Shown one piece after another: positions 11,970-42,148 of a stretch of DNA of 53,638 bases. Each line of letters starts with the position of its first letter. Position 1 is the stretch's first letter. The position numbers and the translations under genes were made by a program. The notes under the pieces were generated by a model. It saw only the letters and a list, made by a program, of their open reading frames with translations. It did no database searches and was not told the origin of the DNA. Origin of the DNA: Actinomycetota bacterium (GTDB lineage Bacteria > Actinomycetota > Acidimicrobiia > IMCC26256 > VFJJ01); contig VFJJ01000103.1 in the NCBI GenBank assembly GCA_009886115.1, positions 1 to 53,638 of the forward strand. The letters are read 5' to 3'.

Positions 11970-13141
11970 CGCGAGCGGGGGAGGCCGAGGCCGGCGGTGG
12001 CGACGATGTCGCGCTGGATCTCGCTGGTGCCGCCGGTGATGGTCTCGAGCGGGGCATGGCGGACGGCTCGTTCGAAGGCGCCGCCGGCAACGGCCCCCGA
12101 GGCGCCGTCGGTCACCAGGCCTGCCGGGCCGACCAGATCGAGCAGGGTCTCGACGAGGTCCTGCATGGCCTCGGTGGTGAAGAGCTTCGTCATCGAGCCC
12201 TCGACCACGGGCACCCGGCCCTCGGCGTGGGCGGCCACGGTTCGCAGCGCGAGCAGCCGGCCCACCTCGTTGGTGACGGCGATCCAGGCCAAGCGCTCGG
12301 CCACGTGCGGATCGGCCATCCGGGGCTGGCCGCCGTCGCCGGGTGTCGTCCGGGCCCATTCGACGGCCTGCTCCAGCAGCCCGTCGCAGCGCCCGGGCAC
12401 GACCGGGAACACGCCGCGCTCGAGCGACAGCACGAGACCCATCATCGCCCAGCCGTCGTTCACCTCCCCCACCCGTGCCGTGTCGGCGACGATGACGTCG
12501 TCGTAGGACGTGACGTTGGTGCGCTCGCCGCCGAGGGTGGCGACGGGGGCCACGCTGAAACCGGGGCTCTGCGTGGGCACCAGGAACGTGGTGAGGCCGC
12601 GGTGCTTGGGAAGGACGTGGTCGGTGCGGGCCAGCACGAGGACGAACTCGGCAACCTCGGCGAACGTCGTGAACATCTTCTGGCCGTTGAGGATCCAGCT
12701 TCCGTCGTCGGCCCGGTCGGCCCGGAGTCGGGCCGCTGCGGCGTCGGAGCCCGAGTCGGGTTCGCTGATCCCCAGTGCCACGAGCGCCTCGCCGCGCACG
12801 AGACGGGGCAGCACGTCGACCCGATGGAGATCGGAGCCGACCCTCCTCAGGAGCTCGGCCACCAACATGGTGTTGAGGTAGCCCTCGAAGGGAGCGCCGC
12901 AGCGGCCGGCTTCGTCGAACAGCGGGGCAGCGCTCAGGCCGTCCCAACCCCGTCCCCCCTCCTCGGTCGGCCAGTGCGAGATCAGCCAACCTCGTTCGGC
13001 GATGGCCCGCCTGAGCACGGGATCGTCGTGGGTTCCGGTGGACCGCACGCGCTCGTGCATCTCGTCGGTGACGAGCTCGTCGAAGAGGGCTCGCACCTCC
13101 GCTCGCAGCTGCACGGCCTCGGGGCCCCACCCGAACTCCAT
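11966..13141 (-). CDS. Acyl-CoA dehydrogenase (catalytic-type subunit)
   Basis: GISEPDSGSDAA, NGQKMFTT, GGERTN, TITGGTSEIQR. Confidence 0.94.
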   Translation of the reverse strand: MEFGWGPEAVQLRAEVRALFDELVTDEMHERVRSTGTHDDPVLRRAIAERGWLISHWPTEEGGRGWDGLSAAPLFDEAGRCGAPFEGYLNTMLVAELLRRVGSDLHRVDVLPRLVRGEALVALGISEPDSGSDAAAARLRADRADDGSWILNGQKMFTTFAEVAEFVLVLARTDHVLPKHRGLTTFLVPTQSPGFSVAPVATLGGERTNVTSYDDVIVADTARVGEVNDGWAMMGLVLSLERGVFPVVPGRCDGLLEQAVEWARTTPGDGGQPRMADPHVAERLAWIAVTNEVGRLLALRTVAAHAEGRVPVVEGSMTKLFTTEAMQDLVETLLDLVGPAGLVTDGASGAVAGGAFERAVRHAPLETITGGTSEIQRDIVATAGLGLPRSR

Positions 13142-35457: not shown

Positions 35458-35651
35458 GGATGCCACCCTACGGGCGACACCCATGAGCGCATCGCCACTC
35501 CGTGGCGGCACGGCACCATGACCCCTGATTCGCTCGCCTGCGGCTCCCTCACCGGATGCCACCCTACGGGCGACACCCATGAGCGCATCGCCACTCCGTG
35601 GCGGCACGGCACCATGACCCCTGATTCGCTCGCCTGCGGCTCCCTCACCGG
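35457..35651. repeat. Perfect 2x96-bp tandem intergenic repeat (MIRU/REP-like)
   Basis: Units 35457-35552 and 35553-35648 look identical by eye. Confidence 0.93.
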
Positions 35652-37054
35652 GTACTGCCGTGGGGGCATTCGACCCAGTCGCGGTCGTCGGGCAGCAGCA
35701 GGCTCGCCTGCACGGGTCCCCAGGTGCCGCGGTCGTAGGGGAAGGCGGTTCCGTGGTCGTCGAGCACGCCATCGGCGATCCGCCATGCCTCCTCGACGGC
35801 ATCCTGACGGGCGAAGAGCCGCTGATCGCCGGCGATGGCGTCGTGCAGCAGACGTTCGTAGGGCTCGGGTCCCTCGCCACCGAGCTCGCGCTCGTACATG
35901 ACCTCGAGGTCGACGGGGCGGCTGATGAGCTCGCCGCCGGGGACCTTGGCCTGCATGGTCAGCGTGATCGTGTCGTCGGGCTTCATCCGGAACCGGAGAT
36001 GGTTGGGGTGAGGCTGGGGATGCGCCGCGTCGGCGAACATCAGCCGGGGCGGGGCCTTGAACTCCACGAGCGCTTCCTGCACCGTCTGGGCCAGGCCCTT
36101 GCCAGCCCGGATGTAGAAGGGCACGCCGGCCCAGCGCCACGAGTCGATCTCGAGCTTCAGCGCCACGTAGGTCTCGGTGTCGGAGCCAGGGTCGACACCG
36201 GGCTCGTCGCGATAGCCCCGGTACTGGCCCCTGATCAGGTTCTCGGGCCGCCAGGCCTTCATCGACTTGAGCACCTTGACGGTCTCGTCGCGCAGCGCGT
36301 CGGCAGCGGCTGAGACGGGGGGCTCCATGGCCAAGAGGCACACCATCTGCAGGAGGTGGTTCTGCACCACGTCGCGCATGGCCCCGACGTTGTCGTAGAA
36401 ACCGCCTCGCCCCTCCACGCCGAAGTCCTCGGCCATGGTGATCTGCACGTGCTCCACGTAGTGCCGGTTCCACAGCGGTTCGAGCAGGGCGTTGGCGAAG
36501 CGGAACACCATCAGGTTCTGGACGGGCTCCTTGCCCAGGAAGTGGTCGATCCGAAAGATCGCTTCCTCGGGGAATTGCTCGTGCAGCGTGGCGTTGAGCT
36601 CGAGCGCGCTGGCGAGGTCGCGACCGAACGGCTTCTCGATCACGATGCGGCTGCCGGCAGCGAGCCCCACCCGGGCCAATCCGTTGGCAACATTGGGGAA
36701 CAGGACCGGGGGAATCGCCAGGTAGAAGACCGGTCGCACCGAACCGTGGATCGCCGCGGCCAGGCGCTCGTACACCGTCGGATCCTGGTAGTCGCCCCCG
36801 ACGTAGCTGAGTCGACGAGCGAACTCCTCGAAGGTGGTCTCGTCGAAGGTGCCGTGTCCCTGCAGCGCTTCTCGAGCCCGGAGCCGAAGTTGATCGTCGG
36901 TCCAGGGCTCGAACGCCACGCCCACCACGGGTATCTCGAGGTGGCCCCCGCGGAACAGGTCGTACACGGCACGGAACAGCTTCTTCTTCGCCAGGTCGCC
37001 GGTGATCCCGAACAACACGAGCACGTCGGCCCGCTTTCCCCGCTCAGCCGGCAC
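35645..37054 (-). CDS. zwf: Glucose-6-phosphate dehydrogenase
   Basis: [46 protein letters not shown]. Confidence 0.97.
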
Positions 37055-37072
37055 GGTGCTCGTCCATCGATC

Positions 37073-38086
<1,014 letters not shown>

Positions 38087-38204: not shown

Positions 38205-40169
38205 CTATTCGCGCGGCTCGCCCACCCATTCGAAGTGCATGCCGTCGGGGATGGTGAAGCCGCCACCCCAGGCGAAACCCCAGCGGCGGAAGATCGCCAC
38301 GACCCTCGGGTCGATGCGAGGCGTGGCGCCGAAGGCGTTGGTGCGCGGGTTGATGTCGACGGCGATCCCCCACGAATGCCGGGAGAGGCTGCCGCCGCTG
38401 TTCGATCCGGGCGAGCGGATCTCGCGCGGGACGTAGCAGCCACCGTTGCGACGCGTGTCGGCGAGGTCGATCGCGCCGGCCAGGCCGGCAGCGGCCACCT
38501 CCCCGAGGGCCCCACGCAATGCGGGCATGATCGTCCGGTGACAGCGCAGGAGCCCGATGAGGGGGACGGGCTCGGTGACGATGTTCGCCGCGACCCATCC
38601 GGCCTCGGGGCTGATCGAGTTCCCGCCACCGGAGAACGCGAACTCACCCAGCCGGCGCTTGAGCTCGGCCGTGTCGAGGACCCGATCGGGGCTCGGCGCA
38701 TCCCATGAACGTCTGACCCGGATACCAGGGGTCGCGCCCAGACGGCGTCCGAGCACGAACTCGATCGCGGCCCGGGACCGGTAGCCCCAGATCCGTACCG
38801 ACGACGGCCGCACGAATCCGAAGGAGGCCGCCACCCCGTCAGCGAAGAGCAGCTCGATCGAGCCGACATCGGCGTCGTCGGCGACGAGCCCGATCGTCGC
38901 CGACGACACGGCGCCGTTCCATCCCAGGAACTCGACCACATCGCCGACCTGCGCCCCCCGCAGCGCTGCCGAGGTTGAGCCCATCACGACCTGCCCGGTG
39001 CTCAGCACGCGGCCGACCTCGGGGCTCATGAGCTCGACGGCGGCCGCGGGGTCGATCGCGGTCGAGGCCATGGGGTAGCGCATGCCCGGCGGCGCCGCCT
39101 GCACCACGGCGCCACCCCGCATCACGCGATACAGACCGATCGTCCCCGCGTGCACCACGGTGGAGAAGCCGCCCACGTCGTTGGCCGCCGCGACCGCAGA
39201 CCGGATCGTCGCCGCGTCGAGCTGTCTCGCCGCGCCGACCGTCACCAGCTCCCGGCCCCGTCCGAGCACGACCCAGGTGGACCCCGTCGGGGCGACTCCG
39301 ATGCCGACGGGCCAGTCGCCCGCCAGGTCGACGGGGGGGATGGTCGCCTTGGCGGCAACGCCGAACGTCGAGACGACACCGAGGTTGTCGACGGTTGCGT
39401 ACCCACCCGGGGCCACTGCGATGGCGGCGACCATGCCCTGGGTGACCGGCCGGCCCAGGAAGGCCGCGTCACCGAACGCGAAGATCCCACCGTCACGAGC
39501 GGCCAGCCAATACCCGCTGCCCGACGGTGTGGCGGCCACCCCCACGACCGGCGCCAGCAACGGGGATCCGCCCGTCGAGCCGAAGAACCGAGCATCACCG
39601 AACGCGAAGATCCCACCGTCACGAGCGACGAGCCAGTAGCCGTTGCCGGTGGGGCTCGCGGCCATGCCAACGATCGGTTGGTTGATCACCTGGCTTCCGG
39701 TGGATCCGAAGAAACGAGCATCGCCAAACGCGAAGATCCCACCGTCGGCGGCGACGAACCAGTACCCCTTGCCCGCGGGATGGGCGGCCATCCCCACGAT
39801 CGGCTGGTTGAGCGTCAGGTTGCCGGTCGATCCGAAGAAGACGGCATCGCCGTATGCGAAGATCCCGCCGTCGGCCGCGACGAGCCAGTACCCGTTGCCC
39901 GTTGGCGTGGGCGCCAGACCCACCAAGGGGAATCGGAGCGCGAGCTCGGCTGGCGAACCGAAGGATCGGGATCCGAAGACGGCAACCACGTCGGTCGCCG
40001 CAACGCCCAGCGGGCGGACCCGTTGACGGTCGTCGACGATCTCGACGTCGGCCGGATCGACATCGGCGTGCGCTGCGGTTCCTGTGAGCACCAGAGAGCT
40101 CACCAGGACACTCGTCAGCGCCGCCGCCACGACGTGGCGCGCGCGAAGAAGGTCGGGCGTTCGGGACAT
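38205..40169 (-). CDS. Secreted M15-family metallopeptidase with GYWLVAxDGGIFAFGDA repeats
   Basis: Signal peptide (AHA-D); four ~40-aa repeats at 120-bp period; C-terminal SRHSWGIAVD...DGMHFE. Confidence 0.88.
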   Translation of the reverse strand: MSRTPDLLRARHVVAAALTSVLVSSLVLTGTAAHADVDPADVEIVDDRQRVRPLGVAATDVVAVFGSRSFGSPAELALRFPLVGLAPTPTGNGYWLVAADGGIFAYGDAVFFGSTGNLTLNQPIVGMAAHPAGKGYWFVAADGGIFAFGDARFFGSTGSQVINQPIVGMAASPTGNGYWLVARDGGIFAFGDARFFGSTGGSPLLAPVVGVAATPSGSGYWLAARDGGIFAFGDAAFLGRPVTQGMVAAIAVAPGGYATVDNLGVVSTFGVAAKATIPPVDLAGDWPVGIGVAPTGSTWVVLGRGRELVTVGAARQLDAATIRSAVAAANDVGGFSTVVHAGTIGLYRVMRGGAVVQAAPPGMRYPMASTAIDPAAAVELMSPEVGRVLSTGQVVMGSTSAALRGAQVGDVVEFLGWNGAVSSATIGLVADDADVGSIELLFADGVAASFGFVRPSSVRIWGYRSRAAIEFVLGRRLGATPGIRVRRSWDAPSPDRVLDTAELKRRLGEFAFSGGGNSISPEAGWVAANIVTEPVPLIGLLRCHRTIMPALRGALGEVAAAGLAGAIDLADTRRNGGCYVPREIRSPGSNSGGSLSRHSWGIAVDINPRTNAFGATPRIDPRVVAIFRRWGFAWGGGFTIPDGMHFEWVGEPRE

Positions 40170-40234
40170 GCCACCAGTCTGGCCGGCGCGCGACCCGCTG
40201 CCGCGCCGACGCTGCCCGATGCACAGCGGGACGG

Positions 40235-40726
40235 TCAGCTCTGGTCATCCATCGGCTGGCAGGCGCGGTCGAGGCCCAGCACCCGGGTGAGGCGGCCGTA
40301 GGCCATCCACGATCCGACCGAGATCCCGAGATCGAGGATCTCTTCGTCCGAGAACAGGCCCCGCATCCGGGCGATGAGCTCAGGCGTGATGCTCTCGTGG
40401 TCGAGCGCGAACCGCTCGGCGTACTCGACGGCCATCCGCTCCTGGTCGGTGTAGCCCGGCCAGGTCGCCCAATCGCGCAGGTGCGTGTAGTGCTCCTCGT
40501 CGACACCTCGGTCCGCGAACTGCGGCACCCGGTGGTGGAGTCAGACGAAGCACCCGTTGATCTGGGCGATGCGCATGCGCGCCGCCTCCGAGACCCGAGG
40601 CTCGAGGATCGAGTGCCGGGCGATCGACCTCGAGAGACCGGTGACCGCGGCGCCCATCTCGGGTCGCAGGGCCCAGACCCGCCGCGCTTGGTCCCCGTCA
40701 CCGTCGGGCACTCTGATGTACGCCAT
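40235..40726 (-). CDS. Carboxymuconolactone decarboxylase/AhpD family protein with in-frame TGA (putative CxxU selenoprotein)
   Basis: ORFs 40541-40726 and 40235-40528 are in one frame: ...EAARMRIAQINGCFV(TGA)LHHRVPQF...ERMAVEYAERFALDH...FSDEEILDL; 163 codons with readthrough. Confidence 0.85.
40504..40537 (-). promoter_or_regulatory. Putative bacterial SECIS hairpin
   Basis: After UGA: CACC/GGUG lower stem, CGG/CCG, CCGC-AGUUC-GCGG apical stem-loop; loop starts 20 nt after the UGA with G at position 2. Confidence 0.55.
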
Positions 40727-40774
40727 GGCAGCACTCCCCGCGACTTGAGCTTCCGCAGCCTACGCTCGGAGTCG

Positions 40775-42148
40775 ATGATTCCTGACGACGAACGTATCGC
40801 TCTCTTCCTCGACTACGAGAACCTCGCCATCGGCGCCCGGGAAGGGCTGCGGGGGCACAAGTTCGACCTCCGCCCCATCGCCGACGCCCTGGCCGCCCGT
40901 GGAAGAGTCGTGGTGCGCCGCGCGTACGCCGACTGGTCGTACTTCAGCGACGACCGACGCATGCTCACGCACAACCACGTCGAGCTGATCGAGATCCCGC
41001 AGCGGATGGGCGCTGTACGCAAGAACGCCGCCGACATCAAGATGGCCGTCGACGCCATCGAGCTCTCGTTCGAGCGCGAGTACATCACGACGTTCGCCAT
41101 CTGTACCGGCGACAGCGACTTCACACCCCTCGTGCACAAGCTCCGCGAGCTCAACAAGAAGGTGATCGGGATCGGCCTCAAGTCGTCGACCTCGGCGCTG
41201 TTGCCCCCGGCGTGTGACGAGTTCCTGTTCTACGAGCGCCTCGAAGGCGTCGACCTGAGCGCACCCGCTTCCAAGACCGGCGGCGGGTCCGGTGGCGCCA
41301 GCGGCGGCTCGGGCGACCGATCCGACACCAGCGAAACCGCCAGCGACAAGCCCAAGACGCGTTCGAGACGATCGCCGCCGAAGAAGGCTGCGGTGGCCGG
41401 ACCCGATGCGGGCACCGACGGCACCGGGGCCGACGACGGCATGCCGTCCGACGGCGAGGCCCCTACGAGCGGGGTCCGTGTCGGCGCGGCCTCCGACACC
41501 GAGATCGCCAAGCTCGTCACCCAGACCTTGACCGGTATCAAGCGCAGCGTCGACGGGCCCGTGTCGGCCTCGGTGCTCAAGCGCACCTTGTTGCGCAAGG
41601 ACCCCACGTTCGACGAGAGCGACCATGGCTTCCGGGTCTTCGGCGAGCTGCTGCGCCATCTCGAGGAGCACAAGGTCATCTCGCTGCGGCCCGGATCGGC
41701 TCAGGGCGATCCCGAGGTCGACTTCCCCGAACAGACCGGCGAGGAGGAGATGGCCTTCCGGCTGCTGCGCGACGTCGTGCTCGAGCAGCAGCGCCGCGAC
41801 GGCCCTCCGCTGTTGTCGGGGCTCAAGAACAAGCTCCGCAAGCGCCAGCCCGACTTCACCGAGAAGCGCTTCGGGTACGCCGGCTTCCTCCAGTTCTGCA
41901 CGGCGGCTCGGGCCCGGGGCTTCGTCGACATGGATTGGGACGACGAGGCCGACGACTACTTCATCGAGGCCAGCGGCAACGTCGCCGAGCCGAGCCCTAT
42001 CGCGGCGACAACACCGACGGCACCGACGGCACCGGCAACGCCGACAGCGCCTGCGGCAGCAGCGGCAGCAGCGGCATCCACGCCCGAGCCCAAGGCTCCG
42101 CGCACCTCGACCCGAGCCCCTCGGCGCCGCACCGCCCCCCGGCCGTGA
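40775..42148 (+). CDS. NYN domain protein with two LOTUS/OST-HTH domains
   Basis: FLDYEN, RAYADW, KNAADIKMAVD, GDSDF, CDEF; two FDE/FTE..GF/Y..F LOTUS motifs. Confidence 0.93.
   Translation: MIPDDERIALFLDYENLAIGAREGLRGHKFDLRPIADALAARGRVVVRRAYADWSYFSDDRRMLTHNHVELIEIPQRMGAVRKNAADIKMAVDAIELSFEREYITTFAICTGDSDFTPLVHKLRELNKKVIGIGLKSSTSALLPPACDEFLFYERLEGVDLSAPASKTGGGSGGASGGSGDRSDTSETASDKPKTRSRRSPPKKAAVAGPDAGTDGTGADDGMPSDGEAPTSGVRVGAASDTEIAKLVTQTLTGIKRSVDGPVSASVLKRTLLRKDPTFDESDHGFRVFGELLRHLEEHKVISLRPGSAQGDPEVDFPEQTGEEEMAFRLLRDVVLEQQRRDGPPLLSGLKNKLRKRQPDFTEKRFGYAGFLQFCTAARARGFVDMDWDDEADDYFIEASGNVAEPSPIAATTPTAPTAPATPTAPAAAAAAAASTPEPKAPRTSTRAPRRRTAPRP

Follow-up and report, generated by a model that had tools for sequence, protein, structure and literature searches.

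A predicted CxxU selenoprotein of the CMD/AhpD-like superfamily and its Sec and Cys relatives in Acidimicrobiia-type actinobacteria

AhpD-like and CMD-domain selenoproteins with a CxxU motif have been described since 2005. The Sargasso Sea data yielded 27 AhpD-like sequences (COG2128, CxxU) and 4 CMD-domain sequences (CxxU) (PMC1088965), the GOS data yielded 299 sequences of AhpD-like 1 and 70 of AhpD-like 2 (pfam02627, CxxU) (PMC2398784), and a table in a 2026 review has a 'CMD-like protein, PF02627, CxxU' among its AhpD-type entries (PMC13188914). Going by the accessible parts of these sources, a first-pass annotation of the DNA studied here was right to state that AhpD-like proteins include selenocysteine (Sec) forms, in families that are long described. 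A full-text search turned up little indexed literature on selenoproteins in Acidimicrobiia; a 2026 preprint reports Sec use in another order of this class, and its accessible text mentions neither AhpD nor CMD (10.64898/2026.04.03.716425).

We analyzed a window of 53,638 nucleotides (contig VFJJ01000103.1, assembly GCA_009886115.1), in which a gene on the minus strand carries an in-frame UGA at 40541-40543. Judging from this sequence and those of its relatives, the UGA is very probably read as selenocysteine, giving one 163-residue CMD/AhpD-like selenoprotein with a CxxU motif. The gene belongs to an already known kind of selenoprotein, the CxxU AhpD-like/CMD kind. As far as the accessible text of the Sargasso Sea and GOS reports goes, its product resembles their CMD-domain and AhpD-like 2 proteins in having PF02627, a CxxU motif with Sec in the second position, abundant Cys homologues, and a hairpin with a conserved loop G after the UGA, a likeness drawn from domain, motif, and description. 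Those proteins are marine metagenomic, with no lineage stated in the same accessible text, whereas the window gene comes from an actinobacterium of freshwater sediment, with Acidimicrobiia and Mycobacterium as the named relatives of its genome. The window family also differs in its repeated Sec/Cys switches within one order.

One reading frame with a TGA in the CxxC motif

The coding sequence (40235-40726, minus strand) comprises 163 sense codons including Sec62 when its internal TGA is translated as U, and runs from an ATG at 40724-40726 to a terminal TGA at 40235-40237. The start codon was read directly from the sequence and homologues begin at an aligned Met; a GGGGAG run at 40734-40739, 7 nt upstream of the ATG, resembles a Shine-Dalgarno sequence and may act in ribosome binding. 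From 40726 to 40235 this frame holds a single internal stop, the TGA of codon 62, which splits it in the table 11 open reading frame list into two same-frame pieces, 40541-40726 (61 aa) and 40235-40528 (97 aa, GTG start). The residues around the TGA read INGCFV-U-LHH, and the first residue of the putative redox motif, Cys59 (TGC, 40550-40552), occupies a column that is nearly invariantly Cys in our homologue alignment A1. G+C content at third positions (GC3) in this frame is 0.90 before the TGA and 0.92 after it. The first-pass annotation had described one frame of 163 codons split by a single TGA at 40541-40543, with this TGA at the second position of the family's CxxC and GC-rich codon usage in both halves, and each of these points was borne out, on the minus strand. 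The gene also ends in an ordinary TGA, so the code is standard overall.

The Pfam CMD domain (PF02627) matches residues 22-104 of the read-through protein, spanning the TGA, at 35.9 bits (E 7.3e-9). This exceeds the gathering score of 23 and places the protein in the CMD/AhpD-like superfamily. No curated NCBIfam model exceeded its cut-off with the read-through protein. NF053654 ('YciW-related (seleno)protein'), explicitly a selenoprotein family, and TIGR01926 ('peroxidase-related enzyme') are distant CMD-superfamily models that matched weakly, and membership in either was rejected, with scores of 59.9 bits for NF053654 (cut-off 310) and 19.9 bits for TIGR01926 (cut-off 81.8). Two CxxU AhpD-type models named in the accessible part of the 2026 review (PMC13188914), NF041047 and NF041238, gave no match at E <= 0.01.

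An AF2 model computed from the alignment is all-helical (pLDDT 88.5, pTM 0.84), with C59 just before a helix at residues 60-64 and U62 within it. Together with the Foldseek results, this model assigns the protein to the AhpD-like all-helical fold with CxxC at a helix start. The best solved matches were PA0269/AhpD of P. aeruginosa (2ijc, 2o4d, 7xw1) and Atu0492 (2gmy), with query-normalized TM-scores of 0.67-0.72 and target-normalized TM-scores of 0.77-0.81; PA0269/AhpD came top (0.71/0.81). These two proteins, whose structures were deposited as of unknown or putative antioxidant function, were also the best profile matches (E 9e-14 to 2e-12, 26-29% identity), so that sequence profile and fold single out the same relatives, with INGCxxC aligned to the motif of the window protein. 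They differ from it in having Cys-Cys at the motif and a length of about 145-165 aa, and in the residues after the second Cys, which are V-D/N-M-H in PA0269/Atu0492, LHHR in the window protein, and xGWR in the subfamily consensus. AhpD of M. tuberculosis, which reduces AhpC, likewise has an all-helical CMD-type fold and a CxxC redox centre (1knc, 1gu9), but its fold match was weak (query-normalized TM-score 0.50-0.55, Foldseek E 0.29-0.44). A scan of 14 neighbouring open reading frames detected no AhpC/TSA gene. Given the weak fold match and the lack of an adjacent ahpC, we rejected orthology to AhpD sensu stricto of the M. tuberculosis type.

Of 906 candidates in a protein search, 799 were relatives at E <= 0.001; the best full-length matches are about 160-168 aa long and up to 60% identical to the query. 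Aligning 20 of these homologues with the query (A1) put U62 exactly at the second Cys of the nearly invariant INGCxxC, and 18 full-length homologues with 47-56% identity in the alignment have Cys in this column. The two closest public protein entries are C-terminal halves, P0004 (97 aa, 85% identity) and P0071 (96 aa, 79% identity), that begin immediately past the TGA position; going by these sequences, their genes are evidently split like that of the window. Such half-length entries in public protein sets fit the expectation of the first-pass annotation that standard pipelines would mis-call the gene.

Conservation of the TGA and of a downstream hairpin

We asked how often the TGA recurs in 61 genomes (the window's own, 1 of the same genus, and 59 of the same order), using the read-through protein as query. 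Homologous genes numbered 39, in 29 of the 61 genomes; 22 lacked a stop and 17 had exactly one in-frame stop, which was always TGA. Sequences were extracted for all 17 TGA forms and for 15 of the 22 others (L042-L047 and G044:C228 were left out). The TGA fell in the second-Cys column in 17/17 TGA forms, within the pattern C-x-[IV]-U-L, and all 15 stop-free homologues extracted have Cys there, so the alignment check proposed in the first-pass annotation, for Cys or a conserved TGA in this column, found both. The 17 TGA forms are spread over 10 genomes: three in G001, two each in G000 (the window's own genome), G003, G024, G040, and G053, and one each in G041, G054, G025, and G005. They include an orthologue in the same genus (87% identity) and a second paralogue in the window's own genome (C122). 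G054 is an unpublished genome, represented by a single gene among the 17 and by a single row in both the alignment A2 described below and the tree; the remaining 16 genes are individually alike. A separate scan of genome contigs covered 80 loci, with 77 Cys forms, 1 TGA form (L064), and 2 loci without the motif, a ratio that is biased and unusable as a frequency, since in one of the search patterns the Sec site had been back-translated as Cys.

A maximum-likelihood tree of 31 family members (16 Sec and 15 Cys forms, excluding the partial G005 gene) requires 5 Sec/Cys changes, of which well-supported branches force at least 2. In this tree, the window gene groups with its orthologue at 100/100 support, on a long branch.

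Downstream of the UGA, separated from it by 11 nt, lies a SECIS-like hairpin (40510-40529, minus strand; +12 to +31 after the UGA) of the form GGU-(G bulge)-CCGC / AGUUC / GCGG-ACC, identified by folding and by comparison with relatives. Its loop AGUUC (40517-40521, +20 to +24) holds an invariant G at 40520 (+21, loop position 2), and beyond the CCGC/GCGG pairs, a bulged G15 is followed by the lower-stem pairs G12-C31, G13-C30, and U14-A29. By the spacing and loop criteria of the bSECIS model, the gene has the downstream stem-loop with a conserved apical-loop G expected of bacterial selenoproteins. The hairpin is present just as the first-pass annotation had given it (CCGC/AGUUC/GCGG, loop at +20, G in loop position 2), but on its own it is no stabler than chance: the single-sequence fold of the 67 nt after the UGA has a minimum free energy of -20.3 kcal/mol (z = +0.39), equalled or bettered by 124/200 shuffles. 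Because the window hairpin is no stabler than shuffles in this G+C-rich DNA, only the comparison with relatives lends it significance. Rfam yielded 0 matches over 40200-40800 at E <= 1, as expected given that bacterial SECIS elements are poorly represented there.

The comparison was made at fixed columns, with pair counts replacing a longest-contiguous-hairpin finder that often chose alternative stems. When the 17 TGA forms are aligned without gaps (A2), a hairpin occupies the same place in 17/17, at columns 25-32 x 36-43, which correspond to +13..+20 x +24..+31. Standard pairs fill 90.4% of the 136 cells and 5/8 pairs are changed on both sides, with compensatory changes such as G-C/A-U, U-A/C-G, and G-C/C-G; the pairing or covariation score was matched by 0/500 shuffles, and slid controls gave 21-60%. 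The loop G (A2 column 33) is invariant in the TGA forms. At identical columns in the 15 Cys forms (A3), only 44.2% of cells pair, against 31-40% in slid controls. Moreover, the peptides encoded by the hairpin vary by clade (RVPQFADR, RIAPLARQ, RAASLVQQ) while pairing is kept, so that it is the RNA that is constrained, and specifically in the TGA forms. Read from these alignments, such a constraint is what a SECIS element would predict. The covariation that the first-pass annotation suggested looking for is thus found in the TGA forms and absent at those columns in the Cys forms. The window copy is the weakest of the set, with a 4-bp upper stem, a bulge, and 3 bp, off the consensus register at 3/8 pairs; the same-genus orthologue is similar, keeping the four upper pairs and gaining three more via a one-base bulge.

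At the SECIS position, some +13 to +31 past the second Cys codon, three Cys forms, L024 (G017), L027 (G049), and L036 (G035), retain a hairpin of 5-6 bp with a 3-nt loop. All three come from one genus, with selA and tRNA-Sec, and their hairpin may survive from before a recent switch from Sec to Cys.

Sec machinery and the predicted selenoproteome

The window's own genome is a 5.45-Mb draft of 224 contigs and metagenomic origin, with an estimated completeness of 95.6%. A search for selA, selB, selC, and selD or a UCA-anticodon tRNA, another check named at the outset by the first-pass annotation, located all four genes, each over its curated cut-off: selA at 458.7 bits, selB at 293.7 bits (320.5 with a C-terminal piece), selD at 398.4 bits, and tRNA-Sec at 66.2 bits, which ARAGORN called as tRNA-SeC with anticodon tca.

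Across the 61 genomes, selA was over its cut-off in 30, including 10/10 genomes with a TGA form. When only the 29 homologue-bearing genomes are considered, TGA forms occur in 10/20 selA-positive genomes and in 0/9 selA-negative ones (G006, G008, G013, G014, G016, G022, G034, G046, and G048); these figures are counts rather than statistics, the related genomes not being independent. tRNA-Sec exceeded the Rfam cut-off in 31/61 genomes, with 27 of those at 59 bits or more, and in 9/10 genomes with a TGA form. The remaining one, G041 (TGA form L026, selA 461.5 bits), had no tRNA-Sec over the Rfam cut-off (best 45.7 bits); its tRNA-Sec is probably unassembled or divergent.

To see what else this machinery might serve, we scanned the window's own genome, guided by GC3, for in-frame TGAs flanked on either side by coding signal; of the 97 candidates, 41 had a hairpin. 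A Pfam scan of 16 of these candidates found a domain spanning the TGA in 11/16. Adding the two CMD genes brings the predicted selenoprotein genes to at least 13, a lower bound because 25 other hairpin candidates and 56 without a hairpin lay outside the Pfam scan. The predicted selenoproteome is unusually large for an actinobacterium, and eleven more genes with TGA-spanning domains indicate that Sec decoding is in active use. The second CMD paralogue (contig C122, 2690-3157, plus strand) is a TGA-form homologue with its Pfam domain across the TGA. The in-frame TGAs of the eleven further genes lie at C44:45394, C101:8932, C149:3137, C179:4216, C193:148954, C80:19599, C125:8969, C168:6052, C27:31739, C92:1039, and C94:12176. 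These genes encode five UGSC-family proteins (PF24696 spanning the TGA), an FdhA-like molybdopterin oxidoreductase (SCNRTUHAPS), two AhpC/TSA proteins with WUGC plus TPR repeats, two AhpC-TSA_2 proteins with UxxC, each of these again with its domain across the TGA, and a MerB-like protein, L150 (G000:C94:11678-12391, TGA 12176-12178; PF03243 alkylmercury lyase). The TGA context of L150 is FT-U-GS, whereas the MerB-like SaoL has a 'CU' motif according to the accessible part of the 2026 review (PMC13188914); judging from these motifs, Sec in L150 may sit at a different position in the MerB fold from that in SaoL.

Weighing of alternatives, proposed function, and significance

A TGA within a family of Cys-containing proteins could also be a nonsense change of the active-site Cys codon (TGC/TGT to TGA) in a decaying gene. 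TGC to TGA is a single-base change and gene callers do report the locus as two pieces, yet a pseudogene is very improbable given that the same column holds TGA in 17 genes from 10 genomes without other stops or frameshifts, that GC3 in frame remains 0.92 downstream of the TGA, and that the covarying hairpin is specific to TGA forms. Substitution rates argue against decay as well: relative to the same-genus orthologue (88.7% nucleotide identity), dN/dS is 0.094 (dS 0.40) over codons 1-61 and 0.246 (dS 0.32) over codons 63-162, and the second paralogue pair gave 0.041 before the TGA and 0.297 after it. By these ratios, the part past the TGA is under purifying selection; coding constraint beyond the UGA (dN/dS 0.246, GC3 0.92) is what is expected of a bacterial selenoprotein. 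The chance that the TGA is instead a sequencing or assembly error for a true TGC or TGT is negligible, even in a 224-contig draft of metagenomic origin. Among assembly contigs from Logan, X6 record 13, from a different study, bridges the TGA and matches 40501-40831 with 0 differences, and X3 record 9 matches 40135-40563 with 0 differences, reaching only 20 letters past the TGA; X2, possibly the source sample, covers 40000-40834 with 1 difference, its position not given. No variant is listed at 40541-40543 in any of the 4 runs compared, and the same-genus genome G001 has the TGA too. The possibility of a sequencing error, raised by the first-pass annotation as grounds for doubt, thus meets independent assembly contigs that carry the same TGA. 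The only contig from an RNA library, that of the metatranscriptome run X8 labelled as ice metagenome, covers 40539-40732, just the N-terminal half of the gene, is identical to the window there, and ends 2 nt past the TGA; being an assembly contig that does not bridge the UGA, it has no bearing on transcript ends, expression, or read-through.

Were the UGA a real stop, the locus would yield a 61-aa peptide and a separate 97-aa protein starting at the GTG at 40528. This GTG lies 13 nt past the TGA, and gene callers report the C-terminal piece in two relatives. However, such a stop would break up the CMD domain right at the active site, where the Pfam match (22-104) crosses the break and the AF2 model forms one compact helical domain; the GTG lies inside the conserved hairpin, lacks an upstream ribosome-binding site of its own, and is replaced by a Trp, Tyr, Phe, or Thr codon in most other TGA forms, so that the start is not conserved. 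We regard two products as most unlikely. A small probability, slightly above that of the other alternatives, goes to read-through without Sec, with a near-cognate tRNA inserting Cys or Trp, or with tRNA-Sec delivering Cys under selenium scarcity. Cys is inserted at Sec codons under selenium limitation in other systems, and the sequence alone is compatible with such decoding. It is at odds with the complete Sec machinery and the conserved SECIS-type hairpin, with the confinement of TGA forms to selA-positive genomes, and with the ordinary TGA terminator, which marks the code as standard as a whole. The recoding of the UGA to Sec, as proposed by the first-pass annotation, therefore finds support in the Cys alignment, the Sec machinery, the conserved TGA, the covarying hairpin, and the independent assemblies.

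With the UGA taken as a Sec codon, we propose that the single gene encodes a 163-residue all-helical CMD/AhpD-like thiol-selenol oxidoreductase with Cys59-x-x-Sec62 as its active site. During translation, the UGA at 40541-40543 would be decoded by Sec-tRNA(Sec), with SelB bringing the Sec-tRNA once bound to the hairpin, which begins 12 nt further on and lies within the coding sequence; the machinery would come from the genome's own selA, selB, selC, and selD. The protein most likely alternates between selenol/thiol and selenenylsulfide states of the Cys59-Sec62 pair. Its role may be that of a peroxidase, or of an enzyme that reduces a peroxiredoxin partner, for which this genome's predicted AhpC/TSA-type selenoproteins are candidates; this would match the Cys-form AhpD-like proteins, except that the nucleophile would be more reactive. 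By this analogy, the Cys59-Sec62 redox cycle would operate in peroxide or peroxiredoxin reduction; actual selenium insertion and the substrate or partner are presumed in this scheme.

No evident redox partner gene was found among the 14 neighbouring open reading frames scanned, so the function proposed for the CMD protein is a putative one, and none of the neighbours points to a function. Downstream by 65 nt lies a gene (38205-40169, minus strand) for a 654-aa protein with about six tandem repeats and a C-terminal Peptidase_M15_4 domain. Further downstream on the same strand (35645-38086) are a glucose-6-phosphate dehydrogenase gene and a 6-phosphogluconate-dehydrogenase-like gene; both enzymes supply NADPH. 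On the other side, a divergent gene (40775-42148, plus strand) encodes an NYN-domain and OST-HTH/LOTUS protein with a long low-complexity Ala/Pro-rich tail, and branched-chain ABC transporter genes are also among the 14 open reading frames. A consensus scan of 40100-40900 for promoters, limited to sigma-70-type sites, and for terminators found 0 of each.

Whether the Acidimicrobiia-type CMD subfamily constitutes a distinct, uncurated selenoprotein family, with several Sec/Cys exchanges in one order and a genome with an unusually large predicted selenoproteome, is in our judgment evenly balanced; this reading draws on the lack of an NCBIfam model at cut-off and on the half-protein public entries of the closest relatives. 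Knowledge of how Sec insertion works is unchanged by this gene. For annotation, the locus would be one selenoprotein gene rather than two open reading frames or a pseudogene, and at least 16 related genes, spread over 9 further genomes, would need the same correction, as would the half-length public protein entries. For evolution, the family would supply naturally occurring Sec and Cys counterparts inside a single order, with which to ask under what conditions Sec is advantageous and to define a SECIS consensus for the clade. For physiology, freshwater-sediment Acidimicrobiia-like actinobacteria would join the heavy investors in Sec-based redox defence, which bears on the selenium demand of their habitat.
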